From the NCBI GenBank assembly GCA_030538085.1, contig JAUNUR010000003.1:23281-87280 (forward strand): a DNA stretch of 64,000 nucleotides, given 5' to 3'. Each line of letters starts with the position of its first letter. The stretch's first letter is position 1. Shown piece by piece: positions 2,286-38,204 of this stretch. A program made the position numbers and the translations under genes. The notes below the pieces were generated by a model. That model was not told where the DNA came from and made no database searches. It worked only from the letters and a program-made list of their open reading frames with translations. The stretch comes from Pseudomonadota bacterium (GTDB lineage Bacteria; Pseudomonadota; Gammaproteobacteria; Burkholderiales; Burkholderiaceae_C).

Positions 2286-3530
2286 TCAAATCAGCGCTTC
2301 GCGCACATCGGGGTGACCAAGAAAGTCACGCGGGCTGGCGGAGCGGCCATAGGCACCGGATTGGAAGACCACGAACAGATCGCCTGCCGTGGCGCGGTCC
2401 ATCTCGACACCATCAGCCAGCAGATCCAGCGGCGTGCACAGTGGCCCCACCACGTTGACGGTTTCCTGCTCCTTGCGCAGGCATCCCATGGACACGGGGT
2501 AATTTCTGCGAATCACTTGGCCAAAATTGCCTGATGCCGCCAGGTGCTGGTGCATGCCACCGTCCACGATCAGGAACGTTTGTCCGCGCGAAACCTTGCG
2601 CTCAATCACGCGGCTGACATACAGCCCCGCCTCGCCCACCAGGTAACGCCCCAGCTCAATGGCCATTCGTGCGCCAGGCATGTCGCGCGCCAGCTTTTCA
2701 GACAGGGCGTTGAGATGATCGGTGACGGGGACGAGGTCGAGCGCCTTGTCGTTGGGTGCGTAGGGAATGCCAAAGCCGCCGCCCATGTTGAGAATGCGGG
2801 GTGTTCGCGGCAGAAGATCCGCCCAGCTCATCACCAGGCCGTAGCTCAGGGATTGCGCCTCGATCAGCGGTTGGGCCTTCAGGTTTTGCGAACCCGCGAA
2901 CAGATGAAAGCCCTCGAACCGCAACTCCATCGCGGCCAACTCCTTGAGCACGGCGGGGACCTGCTCCGCATCGATGCCAAACTGGCGTGGCCCACCGCTC
3001 ATCTTCATTGAAGATGATTTGGCCTCGAAGGGCAGGTTGACGCGCAGCGCCACCCGTGCCGCATAGCCGGTGGCCTCGCTCATGGTGGCCAGGGCCTGAA
3101 GCTCGCGCAAGGATTCCACGTTGAACAAAATCCCAGCGGCCAGCCCGCGCATGAGCTCCGCCTCTTGCTTGCCCGGCCCCGCAAAGCTGATATCGGCCAC
3201 GGCCATTCCAGCATCAAGCGCCACACCAAGCTCCTGACCCGAGGCCACGTCAAAGCCATCCACCAGACGCGACAGGTGGCATACCAAGGCGGGCATGGGG
3301 TTGGCCTTGATGGCGTAATGCAGATCAATGCGGTTGCCCAGCAAGGCGCGCAAATACGCCACACGGCGCTCGATGGCTGCGCGGTCGTACAAATAGCAAG
3401 GCGTCCCGCCGGCACGGCCCACTGCCTGCGACAAGGGCATGGAGCCGACCATCAGTTCACCATTTTCGTTGCGTGGCCAGGCGCGCGCCACCTCTGCTGC
3501 GTCGTATTGCGGACTGTTCGTGGTCATCAT
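2286..3530 (-). CDS. PLP-dependent decarboxylase, LysA/BtrK type (resembles the exosortase-A-associated family)
   Basis: HYAIKANP (PLP lysine), FAGPGK, GFHLFAGSQ, NMGGGFG, IELGRYLV, VGPLCTPLD, GAYG. Confidence 0.88.
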   Translation of the reverse strand: MMTTNSPQYDAAEVARAWPRNENGELMVGSMPLSQAVGRAGGTPCYLYDRAAIERRVAYLRALLGNRIDLHYAIKANPMPALVCHLSRLVDGFDVASGQELGVALDAGMAVADISFAGPGKQEAELMRGLAAGILFNVESLRELQALATMSEATGYAARVALRVNLPFEAKSSSMKMSGGPRQFGIDAEQVPAVLKELAAMELRFEGFHLFAGSQNLKAQPLIEAQSLSYGLVMSWADLLPRTPRILNMGGGFGIPYAPNDKALDLVPVTDHLNALSEKLARDMPGARMAIELGRYLVGEAGLYVSRVIERKVSRGQTFLIVDGGMHQHLAASGNFGQVIRRNYPVSMGCLRKEQETVNVVGPLCTPLDLLADGVEMDRATAGDLFVVFQSGAYGRSASPRDFLGHPDVREALI

Positions 3531-5146
3531 GCTTGGGCTTGCTGATTGGAGGGTTGGAAGAGGCCGGCAAAGTGTTGCGACAGGGCTTTGCGGTCAATCT
3601 TGCCGTTGGCATTGCGCGGCAAACTGTCCGCGGCGATATGGACATGACTGGGCACCATATAGGCGGGCAGTTGTTTGCGGCACAACTGCTGCACATGCTC
3701 AGGCTCCAGCACTTCCCCCTTGCGCGGCAAGACCACGGTGACGATGGCTTGGCCCAAACGGGGGTGGGTGACGCCAAACGCGGCCACTTCCGCAATGCGG
3801 GCGTCGCTGTAAATGACTTCTTCAAGCTCGACCGGGCTGATGCGATAGCCCGAGGTTTTGATCATTTCGTCCTGTCTGCCAATGAAATACAGATAACCGT
3901 GCGCGTCACGGCGCACCGTATCGCCTGAAAACACGGCCAGCTCGGGGCAGGTCAAGCCACTGCCGGGCCGCGGCAGGGGTTTGAAGCGTTCGGCCGTTTT
4001 TTCAGGATCATTCCAGTAACCCAGCGCCACGGTAGAGCCGCGATGAACCAGCTCACCGGGCTCATCCGCGTCACACTCGGTGCCGTCGGGGCGCAGCACC
4101 AGCACTTCTTGATTCGGGATGGCCCGGCCAATGGAGTCGGGGCGCGCATCGACTTCTTGCGGCGGCAGGTAGGTGGAGCGGAACGCTTCGGTCAGGCCGT
4201 ACATCAGATAAGGGCTGGCCTGCGGCAGTAAAGCGCGCAGGCGGCTCAAGACGTCGCGCGGCATCTTGCCGCCGGTATTGGCGAAGTAGCGCAGATGCTG
4301 GCCCGCGCCGTCAGGCCATTTGAGTTCGGCCAGCTGTATCCACAGCGGTGGCACCGCGGTGAGCCCCGTGATGCGTTCACGCTGCAAAACTTGCAGCACT
4401 TCGCTGGGCAGGGTGTAGTCCAGCAGGACGGCGCAAGCTCCCACGGTAAGGGCGGTGGTCACTTGCGACAAGCCCGCATCAAATGACAAGGGCAGCACCG
4501 CCAGCAGGCGATCTTGCGGGCCGTTGTTCAAATAACTGGCCACGCTGGCCGCGCCGCTGACCATGTTGCGGTGCGACACCACCACGCCTTTGGGTTTGCC
4601 GGTGCTGCCGGAGGTGTAGAGGATGGCGGCCATGTCGGCATCAATCACGCCATGAACCGCGTGCGGGTGGCTGGGCGTTTGCAGCCATTGCGGCCACGGC
4701 AGCAAGTGGCAGCGTTGGGCCTTTACCTCGCCCGCACCCACCAGCACGACATGTTGCAAGGACGGGCATTGTTCCGCCGCCGCGGCCAGCAAACGCCAGC
4801 GATCAGGCGAAGTCACCAAAACCCGCACGCCGCCATCACTGAGGATATGCGCCACCTGGTCGGGTTTGAGCAATGGGTTCACGGGCACGAAAACGCCACC
4901 GGCTTCGGCCGTGCCCAGCATGGCCGCCACCGCTTCAAAGCGTTTGGACAAAAAAATGGCCACCCGCTCCCCACGCTGCAAACCATGAGCCAGCAGTCCT
5001 TGAGCAAAAGCCGATTGCATTGCAACCAGCTCTGCGTAACCGAGGTCTTGGCCGGCATGGCGCAGGGCTATCGCATCAGGGGTTTGCCGTGCGACTGCCT
5101 GGGTCAGGTGCTGCAGGAGTGAAGGCGCTTTCATTGGCGCTTGCAT
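3527..5146 (-). CDS. AMP-forming acyl/aminoacyl ligase (resembles the exosortase-A-associated acyl-CoA ligase family)
   Basis: YTSGSTGKPKG, MYGLTEAFRSTYL, FSGD, GYRISP, PRNANGKIDR; ATGA overlap with the decarboxylase. Confidence 0.9.
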   Translation of the reverse strand: MQAPMKAPSLLQHLTQAVARQTPDAIALRHAGQDLGYAELVAMQSAFAQGLLAHGLQRGERVAIFLSKRFEAVAAMLGTAEAGGVFVPVNPLLKPDQVAHILSDGGVRVLVTSPDRWRLLAAAAEQCPSLQHVVLVGAGEVKAQRCHLLPWPQWLQTPSHPHAVHGVIDADMAAILYTSGSTGKPKGVVVSHRNMVSGAASVASYLNNGPQDRLLAVLPLSFDAGLSQVTTALTVGACAVLLDYTLPSEVLQVLQRERITGLTAVPPLWIQLAELKWPDGAGQHLRYFANTGGKMPRDVLSRLRALLPQASPYLMYGLTEAFRSTYLPPQEVDARPDSIGRAIPNQEVLVLRPDGTECDADEPGELVHRGSTVALGYWNDPEKTAERFKPLPRPGSGLTCPELAVFSGDTVRRDAHGYLYFIGRQDEMIKTSGYRISPVELEEVIYSDARIAEVAAFGVTHPRLGQAIVTVVLPRKGEVLEPEHVQQLCRKQLPAYMVPSHVHIAADSLPRNANGKIDRKALSQHFAGLFQPSNQQAQA

Positions 5147-5171
5147 GGAAATTTCCTTGAATGCGGATAAA

Positions 5172-6251
5172 TCAAGTGGCCGTCTCGAAAGCCGTGTTGC
5201 TCAAGGCTGTCAACCCTGTCAGCACGGTGCGGGTTTGCTCAAAAAGGCGCTTGAAGGGCAGTCCCTCGACATAGCCATGGGCGCCCGCGGTTTGCACGGC
5301 ATCCCGGGTGACGCGGCCAGCCAGTTCAGACACATAACTGGACGAGAGCGCCACGCCTGCCACATTGCCGCCAAAACAAGCTTGCGCATACAGCCACAAG
5401 GCTTGCTGGTTCATGGCGATATCGGCCAGGCGCAAGGCCACTGCCTGGTGGTGAAGCAAGGGCTTGCCCGCCGACTGGCGTGTGCGGGCGTAAGCATAGG
5501 CGGCCAAGCTGGCGCGCTGCGTCATGCCAGCCAACAAGCCCATCAACAGGGCTTGATACTGTCTCAGCACCGCGGCAACGGCAGCGCGCGCGTTTGCATC
5601 GTCAGACGCGGGGGCTGGGTGCAAGGCCGGCGCCTCGGGCTTGGCGCACAGCCACATGGCCATGCCACTGGGCAGGCCCATGAGGGGCGACTCGATTTCC
5701 ACGCTGAAATGGGTCTGCAAATCAGCCAGACTGCAAGGGCCCGATACAGATGCGTTCTGGCTGGCCTCGTCCACCTGCAAAAAGTAGATGAACCGCGCCG
5801 CCTCGGCGCTGGCCGATTGCCAATACACCCAGCGCTGAAGGCCGTTTTCAGTGCGCAGGGGCCAGGCGATTCGCACGCTGGCCGGGCCGGGCGTGGATGC
5901 GCCCGTGTCTTGAGGCTGCGCTGATCCCAGCGCTTGCAACAGCGCTTGCTCCAAGGCGCTCAGCAAGCCCTGCCAAGCCACTTCAGGACGCGCCGCGCCC
6001 AAGGTATAGGCCAGGTGCAGCATGACCGTGGGGCGCTCCGGAGCCTCCATGCCCTCCAGCAAGGCATCCACGTTCAATGCCGCAATGGCCTGCAAGCCTT
6101 GGTCCAGGCTGCTTGCACTGTCGCGCTGCGAGACTTTTTCCAGGTCGATGTCCCTGGCAACGGCCTGCGCGGCATCAATGAATGCCTGCAGGTCTGGCGA
6201 CACGGCGAAGGATATGGGCGAGGTCGGTTCGGTTGTGGTCATGGCGATCAA
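5172..6251 (-). CDS. Degenerate acyl-CoA dehydrogenase-like protein (probable non-catalytic partner)
   Basis: C-terminal YARTRQSAGKPLLHHQAVALRLADIA and DAVQTAGAHGY; no xEGT catalytic motif; divergent N-terminus. Confidence 0.7.
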   Translation of the reverse strand: MIAMTTTEPTSPISFAVSPDLQAFIDAAQAVARDIDLEKVSQRDSASSLDQGLQAIAALNVDALLEGMEAPERPTVMLHLAYTLGAARPEVAWQGLLSALEQALLQALGSAQPQDTGASTPGPASVRIAWPLRTENGLQRWVYWQSASAEAARFIYFLQVDEASQNASVSGPCSLADLQTHFSVEIESPLMGLPSGMAMWLCAKPEAPALHPAPASDDANARAAVAAVLRQYQALLMGLLAGMTQRASLAAYAYARTRQSAGKPLLHHQAVALRLADIAMNQQALWLYAQACFGGNVAGVALSSSYVSELAGRVTRDAVQTAGAHGYVEGLPFKRLFEQTRTVLTGLTALSNTAFETAT

Positions 6252-7438
6252 TACGCAGTAGGGTCAAAGGCGCGCGCGATCATTTGCCGCTGCATGTCGC
6301 CGGTGCCTTCCAGAATGTCGAAGGCCTTGGCATCGCGATAGAACTTGTCGAAGCGCTGGCGCACGGCAGGCGCGGCCAGGGCGAAGCGCTGGCTCAGATA
6401 CTGCGCCAGCTCCATCGACAGCGTGGATGTGAATGCCTTGGCCATCGAAGCATCCAGGGAAACGCGCAACTCCTGGTCATAACGCCAAGCAGCGCGCAGG
6501 GTCAGCAGGCGGGCCGATTCCAGACGCGCCTGGTAAGTGTCCAGATCGGCCTGCACGGCTTGCCGGGCCTGGGCGCTCAGGCCGCCATCGTCGTGCGCGG
6601 CAATTTGCCTGGCCAGGGCCAGCGCGCCAGCGCAGGCTCCGTTGATCAGGCTCGACAGGGCCGGGCGCATATAGTCCCAGGCGTATTGCGCGCCGGTGAA
6701 GGCGTCGATCAAAGGGCCCCGCTTGCCGTTGTGACCCAGCATGGCGCCAGCAGGCACGCGGCAATCCTGAAAGGACAACGAGGTGAGTTGACTGGCGCGC
6801 AGGCCCATCATGTCTTCGCAGCGGTCGGCGGAGAAGCCCTTGGCGTTTTTGTCGACGACAAAGGCGCGAATGCCGAAGCGGCCTTTGCTGGCATCCAGCG
6901 TGGCGAACACCACGATCACGTCGGCACGCATGCCGTTGGTGATGAAGCACTTCTCGCCATTGAGCACATAGTCATCACCATCGCGGCGCGCGTGCAATCG
7001 AAGAGCTGTCGCGTCCGAGCCAATCCCCGGCTCGGTGATGGCAAAAACGCCCCACACCGGGCGGTGCTCATCATGAAAGCGTTCGAAATACACGCGCTGC
7101 TGCTCCGGCGTGCCCAGTGCGAACACCGGCGGCATGGACAGCCCCGGCCCCGGCAAGGCGATGGCCAGCCCCGGGCAAACACGCCCCAGTTGCTCGAACA
7201 ATATGCAGCGGTGTACGGCCGAGCCCGTCGAGGACACGCCACCATGGGCTTGCGGCATGTTGAAGCGGTTGAGCGGCCCCACGGGCACGCGCGACCACAG
7301 CGAGGCGGGTATGTCGGCCTCTTGATCAGCCTGCATGACCAAGCCGCCAAGCTCATGCAGCAAGGTCTGCATGAGTTGCCAGCTCTCGCGGTCTTCGCGC
7401 CGCACTTGCGCGTCCACGGCCTTGATGTCGACATTCAC
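6248..7438 (-). CDS. Acyl-CoA/acyl-ACP dehydrogenase
   Basis: FAITEPGIGSD, LNGEKCFITNG, MMGLRAS, DILEGTGDMQR (catalytic Glu); GTG start spaced after AGGAG. Confidence 0.92.
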   Translation of the reverse strand: MNVDIKAVDAQVRREDRESWQLMQTLLHELGGLVMQADQEADIPASLWSRVPVGPLNRFNMPQAHGGVSSTGSAVHRCILFEQLGRVCPGLAIALPGPGLSMPPVFALGTPEQQRVYFERFHDEHRPVWGVFAITEPGIGSDATALRLHARRDGDDYVLNGEKCFITNGMRADVIVVFATLDASKGRFGIRAFVVDKNAKGFSADRCEDMMGLRASQLTSLSFQDCRVPAGAMLGHNGKRGPLIDAFTGAQYAWDYMRPALSSLINGACAGALALARQIAAHDDGGLSAQARQAVQADLDTYQARLESARLLTLRAAWRYDQELRVSLDASMAKAFTSTLSMELAQYLSQRFALAAPAVRQRFDKFYRDAKAFDILEGTGDMQRQMIARAFDPTAY

Positions 7439-7472
7439 AGTCAATACTCCTTCTCTGCCAGATGTGCCGTGA

Positions 7473-8882
7473 TCAGTCTTGAAGAATCGGGTGTCGGGTG
7501 GCGTCCAACTGGCGGGCGCATCGCCAGCTCAATGCCACGGCGGTGACGCCAAAGCCCAAAGCCAGGCCCTGCCACAAGCCCAGCAAGGCGCCGCCCAGCA
7601 CCACGCCCAAAATCCATTGCCCACCGTTGCCCACCACGCCGTAGCCCACCAGCGCCTGAAAGAATGGCGCTCGCGTTTGGCCCAGGCCGCGCAAGATGGC
7701 GGCGGCCACCAGGATCACCCCTTGCAGCCCCAGCACCAGGCCGGCCCAAGGCATGATCTGGCGCAGCGCGGCCGCCTCGTTCGCCTGGTAAGCCAAGGGC
7801 CCCAGAATGACCGCGCCCATGGGCACGGCGGCGATCGTGAAGACCACCACGGCGATGGCGGTGAACACCAGCGTCAGCGCCATGGCCACCCCCGCGTTAT
7901 GGTTGCGCGCGCGCGGATCGCCTTCCGCATGGGCCACGGCCACATACTGGACCACGGCTTGCGAAATGCCCAAAGGGACTACCAAGGCGAAGGTCACCCA
8001 CAGCGCGGCGACGGAATGCACCGGCACGGCATGAGGCCAATATCGCCCCGCGACCATGGCGGCGAACGCCAGCATCAGGCTATCGAGCAACACCACGGCA
8101 CCGATGGGCCAGCCCACGGCAAAGACCTCGGCAAAGGCGGCGCGAATCCGCGCTCCTTGCACTTGCCAGTCGAAACGCAAGGGCTTGAGCACCAGCAAAA
8201 TGCCCATGGCCGCTGCCGCCATGATCCAGTTCGACACGCTGACCGCGCCGATGGCCATCTCACTGGCATATGCGGGGTCGCCACCCCACCGCCGCATGCT
8301 CAGCGCGGCCAAAACGGCACCACACACCGACCCCAGGATGTAAACACCGGTGGCCTGTCCGGGGCGATCTCGCAAGGACACATGAATGCGAAACACCACC
8401 ACCCACAGCGCGGGCAGCAGCCCCACCGCGTTGGCGATGCCAAAGCCATAAGCGGCCCGCGCCAGCTCGGTGTCAACGCCCAGCAGCAGCAAGGCCTGAC
8501 TGCTCAGCACGCTCAGGCCGCTGCACACCAGCCCCACCACGGTGGAAAAGAAAAAACCCGCCACCATCGCCACACGGTAATCGTCGTCGCGACCACGCCC
8601 CAGCGCTCGGCCTCCCAAAAAATACAAGGCCTGCAGCATGCTGGCCGCGGCAATGAAGATGGGCATGTTGAAACTGGCCATCAAGGCGTAGGCCGCGTAG
8701 CTGTGCGAACTTTTTTGGGCAATGAGGCCAGCCACCACCACGCTCATCAGCAAGGGGGCGCTTTGCGCCAAGGTCATCTTGGTGGACAGGCTCAGCATGG
8801 GCATCAGCACCGGCTTGACTGAAGGACGGTCGCTGACCGCGGTGGCCTGTGCCGTTGCGGAGGCGGAATCGTGTTGTCTCAT
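7473..8882 (-). CDS. MATE-family efflux transporter
   Basis: About 12 hydrophobic segments; VGWPIGA, ILRGLGQTRAP motifs. Confidence 0.82.
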   Translation of the reverse strand: MRQHDSASATAQATAVSDRPSVKPVLMPMLSLSTKMTLAQSAPLLMSVVVAGLIAQKSSHSYAAYALMASFNMPIFIAAASMLQALYFLGGRALGRGRDDDYRVAMVAGFFFSTVVGLVCSGLSVLSSQALLLLGVDTELARAAYGFGIANAVGLLPALWVVVFRIHVSLRDRPGQATGVYILGSVCGAVLAALSMRRWGGDPAYASEMAIGAVSVSNWIMAAAAMGILLVLKPLRFDWQVQGARIRAAFAEVFAVGWPIGAVVLLDSLMLAFAAMVAGRYWPHAVPVHSVAALWVTFALVVPLGISQAVVQYVAVAHAEGDPRARNHNAGVAMALTLVFTAIAVVVFTIAAVPMGAVILGPLAYQANEAAALRQIMPWAGLVLGLQGVILVAAAILRGLGQTRAPFFQALVGYGVVGNGGQWILGVVLGGALLGLWQGLALGFGVTAVALSWRCARQLDATRHPILQD

Positions 8883-8893
8883 GCGGGCGCTCC

Positions 8894-10006
8894 TCAAGCG
8901 CTAGGGCTGCGTGCCTGCAACAGGGCCACGCCGATCGTGCCGCCGGGACTCATGCCCCAACCAAGGTAGCGCGTGCCATCGGCCACCTGGCCTGCCTGGA
9001 TGTCAGCCAGCAGGCGCGCAATGGCGACGGGGCCAGATGCGGCGCAAAGCCAGGCCATGTCCACAAGATCGCGCTCGTGCTCTCTCGTGGACTGCTGCGC
9101 AAGCGGGATTTGCAGGTGGGCCATGCCCAGGCTGGTTTGCAGCGCCTGATCCCAATCAAGCCCCAAGCCTGACGGCAACCAGCCTTGAACGTCGTGGGCT
9201 TGCAAGCCATGTTGGTCCATCAATTCGCACATCAGCATCCGCGCATCAGCCAGCACACGCTGGCGGTCGATGCCGGGCAACGAAGCTTGCGCCGCGCCGG
9301 GCAGGGTGACATAAGGATCGAAACCGCGCACAAGCGTGTCCACGCACGCCAGCGCGGCTTGCCTTGGCGGCTCTTGCAGGCGCTCGATCCACAGCGCGGC
9401 GGCACCATCACCCAGCACGACAGGCCAGCCCAGCACGCGTGGCGTGGGCAGCGGCCACTTCTCGGCACAGATCAGCATCGCGCCGTACTGGCTGGCTGAC
9501 TCGGCACCGTAGGCATCGATGATGTGCATGGCACCGATCCATGACGCACCGTGCCACTGCGCCACCCCGAAGTGCGGCACACGGGACAAGCCCACGCCAC
9601 ACACCACGCGCGACAGGCTGGACTGGAAAAAATTCTCATCCACGCTGCTGGTGGCATAGACAGCCAGGCTGCACTGGGGCTTTTCACCCAGGTGCCGCAT
9701 CAAGCCTTGCACGGCTTGTTCTGCCATGCCGGCCTGGCTGGCCTTGGGCTCCCAGGTGAAACGCGCACCCGCGCGCACATGGGCTTGAACGGCTTCAGGC
9801 GTACACCAGGCGCTGGCATCCTGCCCCACCTCGTCAAACTGCCAGCGCGTGAGCACGCGGTAGGGCATGGCGCTGGTAGATGTTCCGGGTACGTCGGCCT
9901 GCTGTTCGGCAAGTGCCTCTTGCCGCCATTGATCGACCGTCGCGGTCGTTCCGGGCAAGACGGCGCAGGCATGAACAAAGGCCAGCGCGTGATCAGACCG
10001 CGGCAT
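8894..10006 (-). CDS. KAS-III/thiolase-fold protein lacking the catalytic Cys (KAS-4)
   Basis: VVLGDGAAALWI, AVYATSS, GWGMSPGGTIG; Cys position reads QWHG. Confidence 0.65.
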   Translation of the reverse strand: MPRSDHALAFVHACAVLPGTTATVDQWRQEALAEQQADVPGTSTSAMPYRVLTRWQFDEVGQDASAWCTPEAVQAHVRAGARFTWEPKASQAGMAEQAVQGLMRHLGEKPQCSLAVYATSSVDENFFQSSLSRVVCGVGLSRVPHFGVAQWHGASWIGAMHIIDAYGAESASQYGAMLICAEKWPLPTPRVLGWPVVLGDGAAALWIERLQEPPRQAALACVDTLVRGFDPYVTLPGAAQASLPGIDRQRVLADARMLMCELMDQHGLQAHDVQGWLPSGLGLDWDQALQTSLGMAHLQIPLAQQSTREHERDLVDMAWLCAASGPVAIARLLADIQAGQVADGTRYLGWGMSPGGTIGVALLQARSPSA

Positions 10007-10268
10007 CGCACTTGCTTTTGACGAACTCGACCAGATTGCCAAAGCGGTTGAACATCTCGGCCGACAAGTCTTCCACGTCGATGGTGAAGTTGAAGCGGCC
10101 TTCCAGGTCTGTCAGTAACCCGACCACGCTCATGGAGTCGAGGCCGATTTCCAGCAGATTGGTGTCCATGGTGATGGCCTCGCGAGGCATGTCCAGTTGC
10201 AGCAGCTGAAGCACCATGTCGCGCATGGTGTCGGCAATCTCCTGCTCGGTCAGCGTGTTGTTTTGCAT
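9993..10268 (-). CDS. Acyl carrier protein
   Basis: LEIGLDSMSVV phosphopantetheine motif; acidic 91 aa; AAGGA RBS. Confidence 0.93.
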   Translation of the reverse strand: MQNNTLTEQEIADTMRDMVLQLLQLDMPREAITMDTNLLEIGLDSMSVVGLLTDLEGRFNFTIDVEDLSAEMFNRFGNLVEFVKSKCDAAV

Positions 10269-10428
10269 GGTTTGTGTCCTTGATATGAAGGTTGAAAATA
10301 ATTTGGGAAACTGGCGCGATGTTGAGCTTGCCTCGGCGCTCCATACCCCGTGGCCGGGCTGCGCGCTGGCTGGTCGAGCTTGATCGGCGAGCCTTTTTTT
10401 CGAGCCGCAGCGGACGGACTACCCAGCC

Positions 10429-11586
10429 TCATCCGTCCGCGCCTTGAGTCTGGTGTGAGCCAAGAGGCAAGTCCGGATCGGGCAGGTGCGCACTGGCCCA
10501 TCCGTGAGCCATGCGCCGGGCTTGGTGTGAACAGCGAACGCGCAGCGCGGCGGCATGACCGCTTAAGCTGGCCATCCAGATCACCGCGTCAATGGGCTTG
10601 CCTCGCCGGACGGCCAGCCCGACCAGATCGCTCAAGGCGATCAAGGGCGAAGCGCTGGACAGGTGTATGTGATTTGAGCGTCCGTGCTGCGATGGCCAGA
10701 GCAATTCGCCCCCCCAGGCCGAGGTGTCGGCCACTTGCTCCAACAGCGCGGCACTGTAGGCATCGCCCGCCAGCACGGCATGAGCGCGTTGCGAGGGTGG
10801 CAGCGATTGCGCCACATGGGCCACCTGGCTGCTGGCCCATTCAAGCAAGCGCGCATGAAGCTGCCGTGGAGGCTCTTGCCAGGGCTCGGCATCGCATGGC
10901 GCTTCGCTGAGTGCGATCTCTTCGACGGTGGCAATGGCTTGGTCATCGTGTGGATCAGCCCCATCGCCCGCGGTCGCCTCACGCACCAGGCAGGCGGCCG
11001 CGGCATCGCCATAGGTCACCACATCAGGAATGCGGCGATAAAAAGGGGCCATCCATTTGTCCGCCGCGCTGACAAGAATCGGCGCCTGGGCGATGGATGC
11101 ATTCACGGATGTGCGGTGTCCTCCGTCATGCTGGGCGCTGGCCATGGACGCCCACACGCTGGCCAGCCGCAAGGCCGTGGCCAGCCCCGCGGTGCCGTTT
11201 TGGCTGATGGTCTGAGTCAGCCGGCTGCCAGGCGCGTAGGCCTGTTGCAGGCGCAAACAGGTGGAGCCCAGTATTTGCTGATCCAGGGTGCACTGCGTAT
11301 GCAGGATGGCGCGGGTTTGCGCAAGGGGCTGGGCAAGCGCCTGTGCCAGATGTCCCGCCACCTGCGCTGTCTGATCACTGTTGCGCGCCAGGGCAGGCCA
11401 GGTCGGGGCTTGGTAAGCGTCGGCCGGTAGCCGCATGACGCCAGGCTCAACCGTGGCGGGACGGGAAAACTGGCCTGCTTGCTCCAGCAGATGCATATGG
11501 CTTTGCGGCGCCGCCGTGCCCAGCAAGCTGTGTTGCGTTTGGCAGGCTGGCACATCGGTTGTTAGCGCAAGAATGGACAGGCGCAT
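10429..11586 (-). CDS. KAS-III/thiolase-fold protein lacking the catalytic Cys (KAS-3)
   Basis: ILVSAADKW, TYGDAAAACLV; Cys position reads QNGT. Confidence 0.65.
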   Translation of the reverse strand: MRLSILALTTDVPACQTQHSLLGTAAPQSHMHLLEQAGQFSRPATVEPGVMRLPADAYQAPTWPALARNSDQTAQVAGHLAQALAQPLAQTRAILHTQCTLDQQILGSTCLRLQQAYAPGSRLTQTISQNGTAGLATALRLASVWASMASAQHDGGHRTSVNASIAQAPILVSAADKWMAPFYRRIPDVVTYGDAAAACLVREATAGDGADPHDDQAIATVEEIALSEAPCDAEPWQEPPRQLHARLLEWASSQVAHVAQSLPPSQRAHAVLAGDAYSAALLEQVADTSAWGGELLWPSQHGRSNHIHLSSASPLIALSDLVGLAVRRGKPIDAVIWMASLSGHAAALRVRCSHQARRMAHGWASAHLPDPDLPLGSHQTQGADG

Positions 11587-11600
11587 GGATATTCCTGGGG

Positions 11601-12563
11601 TCAAGACGGTGGGCGCCATCCAATGGCGGCATAAGCACCCACGTTGGATTGCGCGCAATACACCACGCGCTGGCCTTCGGACAGGAGCCTGACGCCCTCA
11701 TCGGCCATGTTCACGGCAAAGTCGGCGCAGTAGGCATGTCCGCGCTTGCCAATGTTGTCCAGGAAGAACTGATCCATGCCCAGGCCCAGCGATTTGGCAA
11801 TCAACTTCCAATAAGGGAGGGCCGCATTGATGGTCAGCAAGGTGCCCATCTGGTCAACGGGCAGGCCACAGTCCTGTGCATGCTGCTGAAAGAGCTTTTT
11901 GGTTTGCAGCCAGGTCAGGCGTGCGATGGCGGCTATGTTGGCGGCATCGCTAGGACCTTCAAACAGTTGCGTGTAGTTGAGCACGGTGACGCGATCCAGC
12001 ACGCCGAGCAATGACTCACGCCCGATCAGGATGGCCGATCCACCATCGCTTTGCATGCCCGAGTTTTGATAAATGCGGTACCCGGCCTGTCCAAAAACAC
12101 GGTCCGAGGTGACAACCAGGGCATAGCGCGCCCGCGCATCCTGACGCAACAAATCCGCCGCCCACTGTATGGCGTTGCCCACCGCGGCGCAGGCCAGGTG
12201 CGTGACGGAAAAAGACATGTGCGTGCGCCAGCCGTAGCGCTGGGCCAATTGGCTCAACACCGACACAGGCGCAGCCGGCGCGCTGAAGGCTTGTGTGTGG
12301 GCATGAATCACGTAGGCCACGTCAGCGGGATTGAGTCCGCGCGCCATCAGCTGATCGACAGCGATGCAGATGAGATCAAGGTCAGAGCAATGCGAGCCAT
12401 CGTGGAAATAGCGGCAGCCGTTGCGCAGCAACTGCTCCACCAGTTCGGGAGCAACGTCCTGGTCTTGCACCCAGTCCAGCAGGTCAACGGCGGGGCCTGG
12501 CAAGCTGTAGGCCACATCGACCAGCCCTATTTCGGGCTGTGTGGATTGCGATTGAAATGACAT
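11601..12563 (-). CDS. 3-oxoacyl-ACP synthase III-like protein with catalytic Cys (KAS-2)
   Basis: THLACAAV, SDGGSAILIG, DNIGKRGHAYCAD; start MSFQS just after the GNAT stop. Confidence 0.82.
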   Translation of the reverse strand: MSFQSQSTQPEIGLVDVAYSLPGPAVDLLDWVQDQDVAPELVEQLLRNGCRYFHDGSHCSDLDLICIAVDQLMARGLNPADVAYVIHAHTQAFSAPAAPVSVLSQLAQRYGWRTHMSFSVTHLACAAVGNAIQWAADLLRQDARARYALVVTSDRVFGQAGYRIYQNSGMQSDGGSAILIGRESLLGVLDRVTVLNYTQLFEGPSDAANIAAIARLTWLQTKKLFQQHAQDCGLPVDQMGTLLTINAALPYWKLIAKSLGLGMDQFFLDNIGKRGHAYCADFAVNMADEGVRLLSEGQRVVYCAQSNVGAYAAIGWRPPS

Positions 12564-12568
12564 GGCGA

Positions 12569-13228
12569 TTACTCGGCTTCCGCACGGGGGCAAGCGGCCG
12601 CCGAGTCCACCCAGCCCAAACTGCGGCAGGTCACCCCCGATGCCGCCGGCGCATCGGGAAAGCGTGCAATGAACTCGTGCCGCAGCATATCGAACAATAT
12701 GCGGTCTCTCAGCTCGGCACCCATGCGGTGGCGGCCGCGTTGTCGTCCGGTTTGTGTCATGCCCAGCTTGGCGTGCACACCCACCGATGCAACATTGCCA
12801 TCCACCAGCCATGTGCCAATCGCTTCGCGGCCATGTTCTAAAAAGCCGGTGGCCATGGCGGCCAGCAAGGCCGAAGTGGTTATATTTTTGGGCGCGGGGC
12901 CAAAATGACCACGAACACCCCATATCTCGGCCGAGCCCATGGCGTTGTCGATATCCGTCAAGCACACGATGCCTATGGGTACCGTGCTGTCCGGCGCATA
13001 AAACAGCAAACCGCGGTTGCGCTTGCTGGTCAGCATGGAACCCACGGCAAGCCTGGACAACTGTTGACGGCCGCCGCCAAAATCCAGCCAGCAGTGAACG
13101 CGCTGGTTACTCAGCCATTCATGCACGGTGTCGATGTCTTCATGGCCGACGGTTTTGAGCACAACGCGCGGCAAATCGGTGCCAGGAATGGTCTCACACG
13201 TGGGGCGCTTGGAACGGATGGCTCTCAT
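12569..13228 (-). CDS. GNAT N-acyltransferase, RimJ/RimL type
   Basis: PIGIVCLTDIDNAMGSAEIW, LVDGNVASVGVHAKLGMTQTGRQR; TAATG coupling to KAS-1. Confidence 0.78.
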   Translation of the reverse strand: MRAIRSKRPTCETIPGTDLPRVVLKTVGHEDIDTVHEWLSNQRVHCWLDFGGGRQQLSRLAVGSMLTSKRNRGLLFYAPDSTVPIGIVCLTDIDNAMGSAEIWGVRGHFGPAPKNITTSALLAAMATGFLEHGREAIGTWLVDGNVASVGVHAKLGMTQTGRQRGRHRMGAELRDRILFDMLRHEFIARFPDAPAASGVTCRSLGWVDSAAACPRAEAE

Positions 13229-14178
13229 TATGTCCATGCGCTGGCTTGTGTGCTGAGAATGAAGCCGCCAAAGCAACCACCAATGCCACTGGCAAACACC
13301 AAATGATGTCCAGGCGTTTTCAGTGCCGCGGAGTCTGCCAAATTGACCGCTGCGTCTGAGCCGAAAACATGGCCGATGCGGCTGAAGTTGCGCGTGAACA
13401 AACGCTCTTTCGGCAAACGCAAAGCATCCATGGCCTGATACCAGGCCGGCAAGTTCACATTATGAGGCAGCACGGTGTGCAGATCGGAGGGCGTCAGACC
13501 CGCATCTTTGATAACACGGCGGATCACCGACACCAGGCTCCAGAGATAATTGTTGTTGGATTCGTAACGACCGTCGGGCAAGATGCCATGCACCGCCACG
13601 GGATCGTTGTATGTTTGCAGTCCGAGCAACTGGGTGGGCGCATCGCGGCACACCCACATCACCGATGCGCCATCGCTGTGCATGCCAGCGGTGCCAATGG
13701 CACGCAAATCTTCGCGCAAGATGGTATCCACACAAACGATCAAAGCGTTTTGCCACCCGGTTTGCTTGGCAAACAGGGCACGCAACACGCGCAGCGCGTG
13801 GATGGGCGAGACACACTGCTGCTGGGCAATGGAAAAAGTCAGCGCGCGCGTAAACCCCAGCCGCTGACGCAACTCGCCTGTCAGCGTGTAAGGCATGGGC
13901 AGGGCATTGCAAGGCGAGGTATGACAAACCACCAGCGCATCGACTTCATCAGCGCGCAACCGTGGGCACTCGTGCAGCAGTTTGCGTACGGCCGCAAGAC
14001 CCAGATCGATTTGTTTGGCATCACCCCGAACGCGATAAACGGTATCTACGCCATTGCTGCGCAAGACGGCGGCATCGCCAGACCGATATTGCTCATCGCA
14101 CCACTGTTCCAGCGTCACGCCATGCTGAGGTAACACATAAGCAGCGTGGGCAATGCCCACGGAAGTGGACTTGTTCAT
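13228..14178 (-). CDS. 3-oxoacyl-ACP synthase III-like protein with Cys-His-His residues (KAS-1)
   Basis: QQQCVS, SDGAS, LPHNVN, RIGHVFGSD, SGIGGCFG. Confidence 0.85.
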   Translation of the reverse strand: MNKSTSVGIAHAAYVLPQHGVTLEQWCDEQYRSGDAAVLRSNGVDTVYRVRGDAKQIDLGLAAVRKLLHECPRLRADEVDALVVCHTSPCNALPMPYTLTGELRQRLGFTRALTFSIAQQQCVSPIHALRVLRALFAKQTGWQNALIVCVDTILREDLRAIGTAGMHSDGASVMWVCRDAPTQLLGLQTYNDPVAVHGILPDGRYESNNNYLWSLVSVIRRVIKDAGLTPSDLHTVLPHNVNLPAWYQAMDALRLPKERLFTRNFSRIGHVFGSDAAVNLADSAALKTPGHHLVFASGIGGCFGGFILSTQASAWT

Positions 14179-14402
14179 TTTATGGCGGGGTTAATACCGA
14201 GCGACCACCCACTATCGCAAGCGGATTCACGCGGGCCACCGCATACTGAAAACCCAATCACCTCACCCTCCTCACTGAATATTCCCCAGTGCATATACTT
14301 TTTTAATCTCTTTGGGTCATTTTCACCGCCGCTTGCGGCGGTTCCAGCAACGCCCCCGACAGGGGCAGGAGGCGAAGCGGGCAATATTTCCGTATTTATC
14401 AC
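14175..14402 (-). CDS. 75-aa leader ORF of the operon (hypothetical; possible precursor peptide)
   Basis: Its TGA overlaps the KAS-1 ATG (ATGA); GTG start with a weak RBS. Confidence 0.45.
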   Translation of the reverse strand: MINTEILPASPPAPVGGVAGTAASGGENDPKRLKKYMHWGIFSEEGEVIGFSVCGGPRESACDSGWSLGINPAIK

Positions 14403-14949
14403 GGGGAAGATTATTCCACCGTGGAAAAATTACGCGATTAAAGCCGACCAGCCAAGAGCCAACGATTCCGCCCCGTGATGGAAAATGAACGCCCTACACG
14501 TCAAACTGCAACAACCTTTCCGGCAGAGCCGAGGTCACCCCATATTAATAAATCAACCTCACGGTCACTCACCCGAGTCCCAAACGCAGGACTCAATGTC
14601 GGCAGGATGCATTCCTGAAAAATCCAACAATCCTCGTATTCTGCCATAATTTGCAGGGTCAAAAAATAAAAGTTAGAAAAGTAATCGATCCGCCCGCACC
14701 GAAAATAGCACCCGAGAAACAAGTGGCGTTGGCGCGCGGAATTTTCGCTGCTCAAGCGCGGCATCGACGAAGACCAACATGGCAATAGCGCACATTACCC
14801 GTAGCTTAGCGTGATCGTGTCGCTAGCGGATTACCCTCTTTCGGGGGGCTCAGCGAGGAGGAGCGTCAGTGGCTGCGCCCCGATCACGCGATCTTGCGTA
14901 TCGAGTCAGCGCCCACGGCCCAGCGGCTGGTGCGCTCAAGTGCGCCATG

Positions 14950-15352
14950 TCGATGGCATGCCTTTGATCTTTTGCGTCACTGGAGCCAATCGGCACGATT
15001 CAACCGTATTCGAGCAACTGGTCGATGCCCTGCCAGCCGTTGGCGGCAAGCCAGGCAGACCCAAGCGCAAGCCCGCCAAGCGCATGCGGACAAGGGCTAC
15101 GACTATCCGCGATGCTGGATTCATCTCAAGCGCCGAGGCATCAAAAGCCGCATCGCCCGCAAATGCATCGAGCACAACGACCGGCTGGGGCGTCATCGCT
15201 GGGTGGTCGAACGCACCCATGCGTGGCTGGCTGCCTTTGGCAAGCTGAGAACTCGCTTTGAACGCCGCATCGATATTCACCTGGCGCTGCTCAGTCTGGC
15301 TTGCTGCGTCATCTGCATTCGCAACCTTCCAGCGTTTTGTTGGTCGCTCTAA
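14950..15352 (+). pseudogene. IS5-family transposase 3' remnant with right end
   Basis: GMPLIFCVTGANRHDS, then after a frameshift near 15081 HADKGYD...RWVVERTHAWL...RFER; end TTTTGTTGGTCGCTCTAA. Confidence 0.88.
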
Positions 15353-15589
15353 ACCTAGAAACGGCAGTTGACCGCTCGCCATCCTTGGACAACTGGCATG
15401 AGCACTGACTTTCACAGCTTCGATCACATTCACCTGTTGGGTGAGCGCGCTATGCACCCAATCGCACCGCGCTGGCCGTGCCATGCGGCGTTGCTCGTCC
15501 TCGCAGGCACGAGCCTGCCGCGTCCTCGCGTCTTGCCTGGCACGCCCATCACGGCACGCTCGGGCGCATCCAACTGCCGTTTCTAGGCT
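15352..15589. mobile_element. 238-bp MITE-like element, copy 1
   Basis: Ends AACCTAGAAACGGCAGTTG / CAACTGCCGTTTCTAGGCT; highly similar same-length copy at 44126-44363. Confidence 0.88.
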
Positions 15590-15634: not shown

Positions 15635-15871
15635 ATGGAAGAGGTCCCGGCCGACACCTTCAGTGCGTTCAAACGCGCACGCATGGAGCTAAAAAGCGAC
15701 CCCCGAGATGAAGCATTTGCTTCAGTCGGCTGCCACGTTGGAGGGCGTGGACCTGACGGCTTTCGTGCTGTGCGCTGCCGCAGAAAAAGCCCGTCGGGTG
15801 CTGACCGACCATGCCCAGATTGCGTTGTCCCGGTCTTCAGCGGCTATGCTGAACGCGGAAAGCCAGCATGA
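15635..15871 (+). pseudogene. Frameshifted DUF1778/TacA-type antitoxin
   Basis: KRARMELKS in one frame continues from 15708 in another as KHLLQSAATLEGVDLTAFVLCAAAEKARRVLTDHAQIALS. Confidence 0.7.
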
Positions 15872-16966
15872 GTAATATTCATAAAAATGCACATCAGGTG
15901 CAGACCGGGGAGCACTCAGATCCTGGGTCAAAGACGGATCGGCCTCTGGTGCGTTCTTCCGCCGCCGAATATCTGACCTTCATGGCGGCCACTGGCCAAG
16001 CAGGTGTGGAAGCCATCTATGCCGATGAAAGCATCTGGCTGACGCAGAAGATGATGGGGGCGCTGTACGACGTCAACGTGCGTACGATCAATGAGCATCT
16101 CAAAAAAATCTTCGCTGACAACGAGTTGCAAGAAGATTCAGTTATCCGGAAATTCCGGATAACTGCCTCTGACAACAAAACCTATAACACCCTGCACTAC
16201 AAGCTTCCCGCCATCATCGCGGTGGGCTACAAGGTCAACTCCGAACGTGCTGTGCAGTTTCGCAAGTGGGCCACAGGCATCATTGAGCAGTTCACCATCA
16301 AGGCCTATGTGATGGATGACGAGCGCATCAAGGCCGGTGGCTCCATCCTCACCGAGCAGTATTTCGAAGAGCAGCTGCAGCGTGTTCGGGAGATTCGGCT
16401 CTCCGAGCGCAAGTTCTATCAGAAGATCACCGACATCTACGCCACAGCCATAGATTACGACGTCACGGCGCAAGCCACACAGCGGTTCTTTGCCACGGTG
16501 CAGAACAAACTGCACTGGGCCATCCATGGCCAAACAGCAGCAGAGGTCATCTATCAGCGTGCCGACGCAAAAAAAGACCATATGGGCTTGACCATCTGGA
16601 AAGACGCGCCGCAAGGCAAGATCCAGAAGTTCGATGCGGTGGTCGCCAAGAACTACCTGACCGAGCATGAAATGGCACAGCTGTCACGGATGGTCAATGC
16701 CTATCTGGACGTGGCAGAAGACATGGCTCAGCGCAAGATTCCCATGACGATGCAGGATTGGGAAACGCTTGAATCGATTCATCGCAGCCACTGACCGTGA
16801 GGTCTTGCAGGACGCGGGCAAGGTGACTGCCGAAATCGCCAAGGCTCACGCCGAGAGCGAATTCGAGAAATATCGCATCGTGCAGGATCGCTTGTTTGAA
16901 AGTGATTTCGACCGGATGCTCAAGCAGATTGGCTCCGGCAGCTCAGCGCCCAAGGGCGAGGGCTGA
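15868..16966 (+). pseudogene. rhuM: RhuM-family DNA-binding protein, frameshifted at ~16768
   Basis: IWLTQKMMGALYDV, AIIAVGYKVNSERAVQFRKWAT, FFATVQNKLHWAIHG; C-terminus NRFIAATDREVLQDAGKV...ESDFDR lies in the +1 frame. Confidence 0.88.
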
Positions 16967-17861: not shown

Positions 17862-18074
17862 ACGGCTCCGATGTTGATCGGGTCTTGGAACTGGAAGGCC
17901 TGCGAGCCGAAAACGCCCGCCTGATCGCGCTGCTTGAATCCCACGGCATCTCGTGGCGCTTGCCCTTGCCACAGCCGGTTATCGCTGTAAACCCAAAGCC
18001 GGAGCTGTCCCGGCTGTCCACTGCAGAGAAGGCGGCTCTGTTCCGGCGGTTGTTTCGTGGACGAACGGATGTCC
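17858..18074 (+). pseudogene. N-terminal remnant of a primase-domain/DEAD helicase protein (TOTE-conflict-system-like)
   Basis: LRAENARLIALLE coiled coil then EKAALFRRLFRGRTDV; breaks off into SecA sequence. Confidence 0.65.
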
Positions 18075-19046
18075 GCGCTGCACGCCTTCCACAAGGACGA
18101 GCACTACATCATCGCCTACGACGAGGAATCCAAGACCGACAAGGTGCAGATCGTCGATGAATACACCGGCCGCGTGATGCCCGACCGCTCCTGGGAGCGC
18201 GGTCTGCACCAGATGATCGAGGCCAAGGAAGGCGTGCAGATCACGGGTCAGCGCAAGACATTGGCCCAGATGACGTATCAGCGCTTCTTCAAGCGGTACT
18301 TGCTGTTGTCTGGGATGACGGGGACCGCACAGGAGATCGCGCCGGAGCTCAAGCGCGTTTACGACCTGGACGTGCTCCCCATCCCGACCAACAAGCCGAA
18401 CCAGCGGCAGTACTGGCGCCCGCGCTGCTGGCATACCGAAAACGAAAAATGGGCTGCCGTGGCACAGCAGGCCACCGAAATAGCCGCTCAGGGCCGTGCC
18501 GTGCTGGTGGGCACGCGCTCGGTGGAAGGCTCAGAAACGCTGAGTCAGTTGCTGACCGATCAAGGCATTGCCCACACGGTGCTCAATGCCCGCCAGGATG
18601 CCGATGAGGCAGAGCTGATCAAGCATGCCGGCGAAGCCGGCCATATCACGGTCGCCACCAACATGGCCGGGCGCGGTACCGACATCAAGCTGCCCCAGAC
18701 CGTGAAAGACAAAGGCGGGCTGCACGTGATCCTGACCGAATACCACGAAAGTGCCCGCATTGACCGGCAACTGTTCGGGCGCAGTGCCCGGCAGGGCGAT
18801 CCGGGAACGGTGCAGGCGCTGGTGTGCCTGGAGGACGATGCCTTTGTGCGTTATGCACCCACGGCAGCGCGTGGGGTGGCGCGGTTGACGCCACAAAACC
18901 GTGAAGTGCCGACCCCGCTATTGCAATGGCTGGTCAAGCTCACGCAACACACCGCCGAGCGCAACAACCGCAAGATCAGGCTCGATACGCTCAAGCACGA
19001 TCAAAAACGCAGAGAACAAATGGGATTCGCGGGGAATCAAGGCTAG
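18075..19046 (+). pseudogene. 3' half of a short SecA-like ATPase paralog
   Basis: IVDEYTGR, GLHQMIEAKEG, GMTGTA, VLNARQ, VATNMAGRGTDI, RIDRQLFGRSARQGDPG; N-terminal NBD1 missing; ends without the canonical SecA C-terminus. Confidence 0.85.
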
Positions 19047-26246: not shown

Positions 26247-26674
26247 TCCGGGTTGCTGAGCGACAGCGTGACCGGCACCGTCACCGTGTCGCCCGACGAG
26301 TACGCGCGCGGCGTGTCGAGCCGCTGGAGCGCCAGCAGCACGCCAGACCCGGTCGCCTTGCCAGCGCTCGAAATCACAGCGAAACCATGGACGGTCTTGT
26401 CCGCCGTCAGTTCGAACTGCGCGATGCTGGCCGAGTTATTAGTGGCCCCGCCCGCTGCCGCCGCCACCACCAGGCCAGGCCTCGCGGTAGCTGTATAGGC
26501 GGTCAACTCGGTCGAACGCCCAACGATGTTCGCGGCTGTGTCGTCGTCCTGGGGCGTGTAGTCGCCCTCGAACAACATGACGTGCCACGACGTGATCTGA
26601 GCGCGCCCCCGCAGGGCTACGTCCATCATGTAGTTTCGTCCTTCAGCGGGGTAGGTGATAAGCATCGGAGTCAT
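26243..26674 (-). CDS. Phage virion/tail protein
   Basis: [11 protein letters not shown]...[12 protein letters not shown]...[12 protein letters not shown]; coupled to the downstream gene. Confidence 0.7.
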
Positions 26675-38200: not shown

Positions 38201-38204
38201 GGGT

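Follow-up and report, generated by a model that had tools for sequence, protein, structure and literature searches.

What might a bacterium assemble with an operon that holds four homologs of ketoacyl-ACP synthase III (KAS-III) beside a single acyl carrier protein (ACP), with neither the modules of a polyketide synthase (PKS) nor the condensation domains of a nonribosomal peptide synthetase (NRPS)? The question is raised by the minus strand of a 64,000-nucleotide stretch of contig JAUNUR010000003.1 (assembly GCA_030538085.1, positions 23,281 to 87,280), hereafter the window, from a Pseudomonadota bacterium of the Burkholderiaceae_C, in which a first-pass annotation made from the letters alone had noted an unassigned biosynthetic operon. 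Comparing this locus with related loci and with characterised clusters, we propose that it most likely converts aspartate to beta-alanine on the carrier and goes on to make a small enamide or peptide-like product for export. With moderate confidence, we read it as a thiotemplated, condensation-domain-free assembly operon of the dehydro-beta-alanine type known from the afc (AFC-BC11) and bol (bolagladin) clusters, in a lipid-free form. The first two steps of the proposed chemistry appear best supported, because of an identical ligase specificity code, a BtrK-like decarboxylase and the overlap of the two genes concerned; the later steps we infer.

The locus had been described as 12 co-oriented genes at 2286–14402. 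A tight co-oriented operon is indeed present on the minus strand, with 11 genes that span 2286–14178, listed here in the order of transcription (KAS-III-like proteins are named KasA to KasD; acyl-CoA dehydrogenase is abbreviated ACAD and pyridoxal phosphate PLP; aa, amino acids; HMM, hidden Markov model).

14179–14800, no strand: AT-richer non-coding leader 5′ of KasA, in which the promoter is presumed to lie; open reading frames (ORFs) within it lack a coding signature
13228–14178, minus strand: KasA, AfcO-type KAS-III-like protein (Pfam ACP_syn_III_C, 1.6e-8)
12569–13228, minus strand: GNAT-fold N-acyltransferase, 219 aa (Pfam Acetyltransf_3, 1e-7)
11601–12563, minus strand: KasB, second AfcO-type KAS-III-like protein (sub-threshold Pfam; tblastn and HMM to afcO)
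10429–11586, minus strand: KasC, AfcR/BolP-type KAS-III-like protein (sub-threshold Pfam; profile and afcR HMM)
10269–10428, no strand: 160-bp intergenic gap, site of a 409-aa ATP-grasp gene in the other loci that cover it
9993–10268, minus strand: ACP, free-standing acyl/peptidyl carrier with a GLDSM motif (Pfam PP-binding, 2.8e-10)
8894–10006, minus strand: KasD, divergent AfcR-like thiolase-fold protein (profile against FabH 2ebd; afcR HMM)
7473–8882, minus strand: MATE efflux transporter (Pfam MatE, 4.5e-18; NorM family, 6e-16)
6248–7444, minus strand: ACADa, complete acyl-CoA/ACP dehydrogenase, 398 aa (three Pfam ACAD domains)
5172–6251, minus strand: ACADb, degenerate ACAD paralog, 359 aa (Pfam Acyl-CoA_dh_1 only, 1.2e-12)
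3527–5146, minus strand: stand-alone VinN/AfcQ-type adenylation enzyme, the AMP-forming ligase (TIGR03098; identity to AfcQ)
2286–3530, minus strand: PLP-dependent fold-III decarboxylase of BtrK / exosortase-A-associated type (TIGR03099; BtrK match)

Pfam and NCBIfam assigned the families of the decarboxylase, the ligase, both ACAD-related proteins, the MATE transporter, the ACP and the GNAT. Successive genes lie −1, 5, 14, 160, −14, 8, 28, −4, 25 and −4 nt apart, and since all distances but the single 160-nt gap before the ACP fall between −14 and 28 nt, the translational coupling reported earlier is real. The proposed twelfth gene, an ORF at 14175–14402 (GTG start, 75 aa), has no family match and no counterpart 5′ of KasA in related loci, and the GC contents of its three codon positions hardly differ (0.55/0.55/0.49), whereas the 11 real genes have third-position values (GC3) of 0.65–0.83. 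Another ORF at 14501–14785 likewise lacks a coding signature and a family match, and the interval from 14179 to ~14800 is best read as a non-coding leader; a consensus scan of the operon ends for promoters and terminators gave no signal above that of shuffled sequence. As first stated, the operon has no KS-AT (ketosynthase-acyltransferase) PKS module, NRPS condensation domain or FabF, and none turned up among the large ORFs tested in the rest of the window.

Work on afc and bol between 2020 and 2026 has described peptide assembly that needs a single small carrier protein and no condensation domains (PMC12186527, PMC7756342). In afc, the cluster of the antifungal lipopeptide AFC-BC11 in the Burkholderia cepacia complex (Zhong et al., JACS 2025, PMC12186527), L-aspartate enters through its side-chain carboxyl, which the VinN-type enzyme AfcQ activates and links to AfcK, the only carrier protein; decarboxylation by the PLP enzyme AfcP then gives beta-alanyl-S-AfcK, and the cycle repeats; the conversion of Asp into the beta-Ala-S-carrier by AfcQ, AfcK and AfcP has been reconstituted in vitro. 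A fatty-acyl-AMP ligase caps the resulting trimer, the KAS-III-like AfcL holds (beta-Ala)n as a Cys thioester and makes an amide, and AfcE, an ACAD homologous to BolQ, is expected to form the dehydro-beta-alanine residues (PMC12186527). In bol, the bolagladin cluster of Burkholderia gladioli (Dashti et al. 2020, PMC7756342), deletion of bolQ leads to a beta-alanine analog, and BolN was noted as BtrK-like by the authors.

The ligase of the window scores 752.2 bits on TIGR03098 (cutoff 592.35), is 57% identical to AfcQ over 372 aa (HMM against afcQ, 4e-137) and matches VinN (3wvn) at 2e-55. Read at the AfcQ-equivalent alignment positions, its 10-residue specificity code, DASTATMFRK, is that of AfcQ (PMC12186527, Table S8); the same code occurs in the ligases of the related loci L001, L002 and L004, and its first nine residues in that of L018. 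The enzyme is predicted to activate the beta-carboxyl of L-aspartate. To afcA, the ligase family has a single, weak match (3.6e-17). The ACP, the one free-standing carrier of the operon, has in its GLDSM motif a Ser for phosphopantetheine attachment, and its family HMM matches afcK at 1.7e-5. The decarboxylase scores 550.8 bits on TIGR03099 (cutoff 478.45), and its closest solved relative is BtrK (7ru7/2j66, 1.4e-70), named diaminopimelate decarboxylases reaching 3e-41 or weaker; its start overlaps the ligase stop by 4 nt. In the scheme that we propose, the AfcQ-like ligase would adenylate the side-chain carboxyl of L-aspartate and load it onto the ACP, as shown biochemically for AfcQ, and the BtrK-like decarboxylase would then remove the alpha-carboxyl to give beta-alanyl-S-ACP, by analogy with the reaction shown for AfcP, BtrK and VinO. 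Loading may repeat on the freed amine, as with AfcQ, and lead to short beta-alanine oligomers.

The initial proposal that ligase, ACP and PLP decarboxylase build an aminoacyl-ACP unit is thus upheld by the BtrK match and by the amino-acid adenylation type of the ligase; its butirosin analogy stands for the chemistry of the three proteins and gives way as to kinship, the closest relatives being afc and bol and the predicted substrate Asp rather than Glu. A truly butirosin-like route, with glutamate tethered by its gamma-carboxyl and decarboxylated to 4-aminobutyryl-ACP so that a 4-aminobutyryl-derived unit enters the product, could draw on BtrK as best solved relative of the decarboxylase and on the ATP-grasp gene that adjoins the ACP in the relatives, as btrJ does with btrI. 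We nevertheless consider it very improbable, in view of the Asp-specific AfcQ code in all five ligases cited above, of an ATP-grasp protein that resembles L-amino-acid ligases instead of a carrier-loading enzyme and is absent from the window, and of the lack of any recognised BtrO/V-, BtrH- or BtrG-like gene. Pyrrole-type prolyl-carrier pathways and aminomalonyl- or methoxymalonyl-ACP pathways were rejected, given the Asp ligase code and the absence of a 3-hydroxyacyl-CoA dehydrogenase or FkbH-like gene.

The module is met in other settings. In L014 (10001–15235), a decarboxylase homolog (65% identity) lies near a large hybrid PKS/NRPS gene, with a carrier protein and an AMP-ligase whose pocket, DYYFTTMKR, resembles the beta-carboxyl Asp codes of FlvN and VinN; here the ligase/carrier/decarboxylase module seems to be put to yet another use.

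Both enzymes of the window also exceed the curated cutoffs of families described as "exosortase A system-associated" (TIGR03098, TIGR03099), and are 54–67% identical (60–67% for the decarboxylase) to thousands of such proteins. A decarboxylase homolog sits among polysaccharide genes in Luteimonas, beside a different type of AMP-binding ligase (L013), and in a polysaccharide locus of Sinorhizobium meliloti pSymB (L016, 8899–12028) a ligase is followed by a decarboxylase, adjoining a carrier protein. These relationships, together with the LolA-like and MacB-like export genes upstream of the operon in L001 and L003, are what would be expected if ligase, decarboxylase and ACP served to decorate a cell-surface polysaccharide or lipid, as in exosortase-A/PEP-CTERM loci, the operon then modifying the envelope in place of making a diffusible metabolite. 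The window pair does share with the exosortase-A-associated trio the ligase-to-decarboxylase order with overlapping stop and start, but the trio lies amid glycosyltransferase and polysaccharide genes, whereas the window pair, like its counterparts in the related loci, is always embedded with KAS-III, ACAD, MATE and GNAT genes. No glycosyltransferase, Wzy, polysaccharide-export, exosortase or PEP-CTERM gene was found beside the operon, either in the window or in L001, L002 and L018, and AfcQ itself matches TIGR03098 strongly (472 bits over its C-terminal two thirds), yet makes a secreted lipopeptide. An envelope role is therefore very unlikely in our view. Nor is a role in ordinary membrane-lipid synthesis, named at the outset as a competing possibility, supported. 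The comparison may be more informative in the reverse direction: because the pSymB ligase carries the code DASTATMFR, the same as AfcQ, and AfcQ matches TIGR03098, we suggest that the widespread exosortase-A-associated trio may make beta-alanyl-carrier thioesters from aspartate. A search of the literature on the biochemistry of the exosortase-linked ligase and decarboxylase found nothing useful, and the suggestion gives a testable function to a module annotated in thousands of genomes.

How, then, would carrier-bound beta-alanine be processed, and with what role for the four KAS-III homologs? These four FabH-fold genes are real, as first noted, but they are not equivalent. KasA exceeds the Pfam ACP_syn_III_C cutoff (1.6e-8) and matches FabH structures at 2e-7, KasB and KasC reach Pfam only below threshold, and KasD has no Pfam or NCBIfam match; profiles link KasC to KAS III 8vdb (2.5e-4) and the KasD family to Aquifex FabH 2ebd (1.8e-5), and all four proteins match AfcO or AfcR. 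KasA and KasB are paralogs (~25% identity) that both keep an invariant Cys and an invariant His-x4-Asp motif. The KasA triad is Cys122/His270/Asp275, and its family HMM matches afcO at 2.7e-44; KasB, with Cys/His/Asp and an Ile at the position of FabH His244, is 36% identical to AfcO (tblastn 1.5e-56, HMM 2.4e-79). KasC has an invariant Thr132 at the nucleophile position, followed by His308 and Ser313, and its family HMM matches afcR at 1.7e-32; a search of a plasmid collection with KasC returned matches in two Burkholderia replicons only. The published triads (AfcL C111/H238/D243, AfcO C128/H279/D284, AfcR T157/H307/E312; PMC12186527) fall exactly on conserved columns of KasA/KasB for AfcL and AfcO, and of KasC for AfcR. 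KasD, whose family HMM matches afcR at 1.1e-18, carries Gly, Ser and Tyr in place of the Cys, His and Asn, respectively, has no catalytic triad and no conserved His, and is probably a non-catalytic partner; its AlphaFold model, built from 8 sequences, was poor (predicted local distance difference test, pLDDT, 55.6) and was not used for a fold search.

The Cys/His/Asn triad of condensing KAS III and type III PKS enzymes is in none of the four Kas proteins, and because KasA and KasB carry Cys/His/Asp, KasC Thr/His/Ser and KasD no triad, the active sites argue for acyl transfer rather than ketide extension. The KAS-III-extended ketide of the first-pass annotation is accordingly not favoured. Condensation, by malonyl extension of an amino-acid-primed ACP thioester or by head-to-head joining to an amino-ketide or pyrone-like product, would be in keeping with the thiolase/FabH fold established for all four proteins, with the nucleophilic Cys of KasA and KasB, and with one distant relative (P0130) that lies beside KS, chain-length factor (CLF) and dehydratase genes; moreover, the bolagladin authors considered that BolM or BolP may extend citryl-CoA with malonyl-ACP (PMC7756342), and in the published afc gene table AfcL/O/R are entered as "C-C coupling (Claisen)" (PMC12186527). 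We nonetheless find it unlikely, as the third residue of KasA and KasB is Asp, as in the acyl-transferring AfcL and ChlB3, KasC and KasD have no Cys, and a malonyl transferase, a ketoreductase, a dehydratase and a second ACP are all missing from the cluster. Under the acyl-transfer reading that we prefer, KasA and KasB would take the chain as a thioester and pass it to an amine or hydroxyl acceptor, forming a C–N or C–O bond and releasing it, with the Cys-less KasC and KasD as partner subunits. Such a pairing fits the gene dosage: the ratio of AfcO-type to AfcR-type genes is 1:1 in both afc and bol and 2:2 in this operon, a balance suggesting that the two types of proteins work as pairs.

Between loading and release, the remaining genes would supply an N-cap, a desaturation and an exit. 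The AlphaFold2 model of the GNAT (pLDDT 85) has as its best Foldseek matches SpeG spermidine N-acetyltransferases and PseH (template modelling score up to 0.86), and because of this SpeG-like predicted fold and because the cluster has no fatty-acyl-AMP ligase, we assign to it the probable role of an amine N-acetyl or N-acyl cap, by which the amine would receive an acetyl or other short acyl group. This order of events matches the argument of the AFC authors, for whom an N-cap is needed before desaturation since a free enamine would hydrolyse (PMC12186527). ACADa, in which the catalytic Glu is kept and the Glu motif (ILEGTGDMQR) is invariant, matches short-chain ACAD structures at 3e-43 and the prolyl-ACP dehydrogenase 4irn at 1e-30. 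ACADb directly follows ACADa in all related loci; only its C-terminal domain is recognisable, the N-terminal two thirds being degenerate, and the catalytic Glu is not conserved (FEQT in three members, against YALS and FARL in L004 and L006). The two proteins likely form a heteromer with one active subunit, which could desaturate the N-acyl-beta-alanyl thioester to an enamide, and the desaturation by an ACAD proposed earlier is thereby supported by analogy with BolQ. The MATE pump, kept at the same position in all related loci, would export the product, a role already put forward on first inspection that we rate as plausible.

The organisation of the operon does not result from chance. Wherever enough contig was available to assess gene order, the same genes occur in the same order in L001/L003, L002, L004, L006 (partial), L007–L012, L017, L018 and the P0130 locus, and because this order is kept in at least six other lineages, whose proteins are 26–78% identical to those of the window (locus GC 0.48–0.71), the operon is a real, selected unit, far beyond chance. 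In L018, the 13 genes stand between two-component and ABC-F genes that have no relation to them, which indicates that the cluster is self-contained. It is also rare, occurring in Comamonadaceae-like and Rubrivivax-like bacteria and in one genome of 48% GC. The seryl-tRNA synthetase cluster of the host of the window copy marks it as an Ottowia-like bacterium within the Comamonadaceae. KasD forms only 8 clusters at 90% identity among 5.8 billion proteins, an exhaustive search with its profile found 31 representatives at E < 1e-30 among 1.84e9, and a pattern-based scan of 185,579 species-representative genomes returned 2 matches (a Burkholderiales and a Rubrivivax metagenome-assembled genome). 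The GNAT family forms 11 clusters in the 5.8e9 proteins, one of them from the myxobacterium Hyalangium versicolor.

In this cultured myxobacterium (P0295), the GNAT homolog is 42% identical and lies on a 976-kb contig; the rest of the cluster, if present, would make it a tractable host. In the P0130 locus (JGI 3300041966), aryl-polyene-like genes (ApeI-like dehydratase, ACP, KS, CLF) stand immediately upstream of a distant form of the cluster, and an alpha/beta-hydrolase and DSBA pair lies upstream of KasA. A comparable pair lies downstream of the window operon, on the operon strand and just past an Hsp15-like gene, with the alpha/beta-hydrolase (814–~1650) followed by the DsbA-like gene (37–777); what P0130 and the window have in common here may be coincidence. 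The window pair (37–1650) was taken for resident genes and not for part of the cluster, as no homologs were found in the other loci examined and its GC3 is higher than that of the cluster genes.

The related loci also reveal what the window copy lacks. A 409-aa ATP-grasp gene stands between KasC and the ACP, at the site of the 160-bp gap, in L001, L002, L003, L004, L006, L008, L009, L017 and L018, and an ORF of 94–96 aa, with a pentapeptide-repeat Pfam match in most loci, stands between MATE and ACADa. Both genes are present in all eight other lineages with contig cover at those positions, the window copy alone being without them, and no remnant of either was found in the window (tblastn for the ATP-grasp). 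The ATP-grasp proteins of L001 and L002 are 89% identical to each other, above the 57–76% of the other cluster genes (window against relatives), and their best matches are L-amino-acid ligases (4wd3 at 4e-13; BacD, DdaF). We propose that the 13-gene form is ancestral and that the window copy has lost the two genes. In the 13-gene form, the L-amino-acid-ligase-type ATP-grasp would add or prepare an amino-acid building block, and the 94-aa pentapeptide-repeat protein may, speculatively, give immunity. A more specific version, to which we attach rather little credence, is that the conserved 13-gene unit, as a self-contained assembly line free of lipid genes, makes a new class of small N-capped oligo-(dehydro-)beta-alanine enamide peptides, with amides formed, in place of condensation domains, through an iterative adenylation enzyme and heterodimers of catalytic and triad-less KAS-III-like proteins, and with the linked pentapeptide-repeat protein as a target-mimicking immunity factor. 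Such immunity, if true, would suggest that the compound is aimed at an enzyme of nucleic acids, for instance a topoisomerase.

Loss of both genes would imply a truncated product or a path to inactivation, and the window copy is possibly a reduced, decaying form beside a mobile element. In the strongest form of this argument, it would be a decaying remnant brought by the mobile element and would make nothing. Besides being the sole one of nine lineages without the two genes, it has neither the genes found upstream in L001 and L003 (ABC ATPase, FtsX-type permease, LolA-like and 452-aa proteins) nor the GerE regulator found downstream in L001–L003; a fragment of a DDE transposase (14811–15352) lies 630 bp upstream of the operon, bounding the KasA leader, and is followed by an integrase-bearing element, and cluster GC is 0.63 against ~0.68 in the flanking chromosome. 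Set against this, all 11 genes are full-length relative to their orthologs, with no frameshifts or stops, the coupling of starts and stops is intact, and the two missing genes were cleanly removed. A search for sequencing runs covering 8000–12000 of the window listed none. We regard a product-less remnant as doubtful, while giving it a real share of probability.

The mobile element, noted at 14811–39240, lies directly upstream of the operon. Besides the transposase fragment, it includes a RhuM-family gene (15868–16794), a SecA-like fragment (18057–19046) and a 2125-aa polyvalent protein with MuF_C and LPD domains (26114–32491), and its tyrosine integrase (37990–39117) abuts a tRNA-Ser(CGA) gene (39151–39240). 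A search for the 3′ end of tRNA-Ser repeated in direct orientation (att), which would set the ends of the element and tell whether it takes in the operon, found none. Three long minus-strand ORFs of the element, at 20364–22496, 23625–26246 and 34617–37400 (710, 873 and 927 aa), have no Pfam match at E ≤ 1e-4.

Several observations weigh against assigning the window operon to the afc/bol type of assembly. The absence of the ATP-grasp and pentapeptide genes, of the L001/L003 exporter genes and of the L001–L003 regulator means that the window copy may be non-functional. Its decarboxylase is only 25% identical to AfcP (HMM 3.5e-21), a distant paralog, and ACADa matches afcE weakly (8.6e-8 over ~164 aa; 398 against 616 aa), while nothing significant was matched in the afc locus by HMMs of ACADb, GNAT, MATE, ATP-grasp or the pentapeptide protein. 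AfcL, the characterised acyltransferase, is not detectably matched by KasA or KasB (E about 7); both match the uncharacterised AfcO instead, and with the Claisen label given to these proteins in the afc gene table, C–C condensation by KasA or KasB is possible.

If the assignment to the afc/bol type is correct, the operon would represent a rare version of this chemistry, without the lipid part but with a GNAT, a pair of ACADs, a MATE pump and a doubled set of KAS-III-like genes. This makes it a good genome-mining target for a new dehydro-beta-alanine compound, and a natural experiment on the roles of the uncharacterised AfcO-type and AfcR-type proteins. The 2026 AFC revision does not discuss AfcO, AfcR or AfcL.

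Compared with afc, for which the locus of Burkholderia cenocepacia CMCC(B)23006 (L015) was used, the operon shares a free-standing carrier, an AfcQ-type ligase with identical code, a PLP decarboxylase for a tethered amino acid, AfcO-type and AfcR-type KAS-III-like proteins, the lack of condensation domains and, with a weak match to afcE, an ACAD; the upstream ABC ATPase, permease and LolA-like genes of L001 and L003 are homologous to afcB/G/H, and their 452-aa neighbour has, as a profile HMM, no significant match to the afc locus. Unlike afc, the operon has no fatty-acyl-AMP ligase AfcA, citrate synthase AfcS, O-methyltransferase AfcT, desaturases AfcC/D/N, TauD-type AfcU, AfcM or detectable AfcL ortholog, and the lipid (MMFA) genes, that is fatty-acyl-AMP ligase, citrate synthase and O-methyltransferase, are likewise absent from L001, L002 and L018. 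Its decarboxylase belongs with TIGR03099 and BtrK, two ACADs, of 398 and 359 aa, take the place of the 616-aa AfcE, GNAT, MATE, a second AfcO-like gene and the triad-less KasD are additional, as are the ATP-grasp and pentapeptide-repeat proteins of the relatives, and the gene order differs. AFC-BC11 itself photoisomerises and degrades in light (PMC12186527).

In L015, afcQ (13884–15472) appears as two overlapping ORFs in different frames (13884–14531 and 14420–15472), either through a frameshift or through a sequencing error in that assembly.

The bol cluster offers the same cassette, in which BolC/O/N/Q and the KAS-III homologs BolM and BolP lead from Asp through beta-alanyl-ACP to dehydro-beta-alanine, and BolP has Thr at the position of the active-site Cys, as does KasC. 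It differs in that the output of the bol cassette goes to a multimodular NRPS and a fatty acid primed with citrate, neither of which is present here, and in that KasA and KasB have Cys at a position held by Ser in BolM.

With butirosin (BtrI/BtrJ/BtrK) and vicenistatin (VinL/VinN/VinO), the operon would have in common the tethering of an acidic amino acid by its side chain to a free-standing ACP, followed by alpha-decarboxylation by a fold-III PLP enzyme, VinN being among the better relatives of the ligase and BtrK the best solved relative of the decarboxylase. The predicted substrate here is Asp, not Glu or 3-methyl-Asp, and there is no aminoglycoside or macrolactam PKS context and no homolog of BtrO/V/H/G or VinM/K/J: domains of a flavin monooxygenase pair, a BtrH acyltransferase, a BtrG cyclotransferase or an aminoglycoside core were not found in the 11 genes or their flanks. 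In butirosin the ATP-grasp enzyme BtrJ loads glutamate on the ACP; the window has no ATP-grasp gene, and loading is assigned to the AMP-forming ligase with its Asp code. The earlier view that this is not a characterised cluster holds for the exact gene set, the architecture as such being uncharacterised, and is to be qualified for its parts, as 6 of the 11 gene families have characterised or named homologs in the published afc and bol clusters. Judged by these homologies, the closest known systems are the dehydro-beta-alanine cassettes of afc and bol, and not butirosin.

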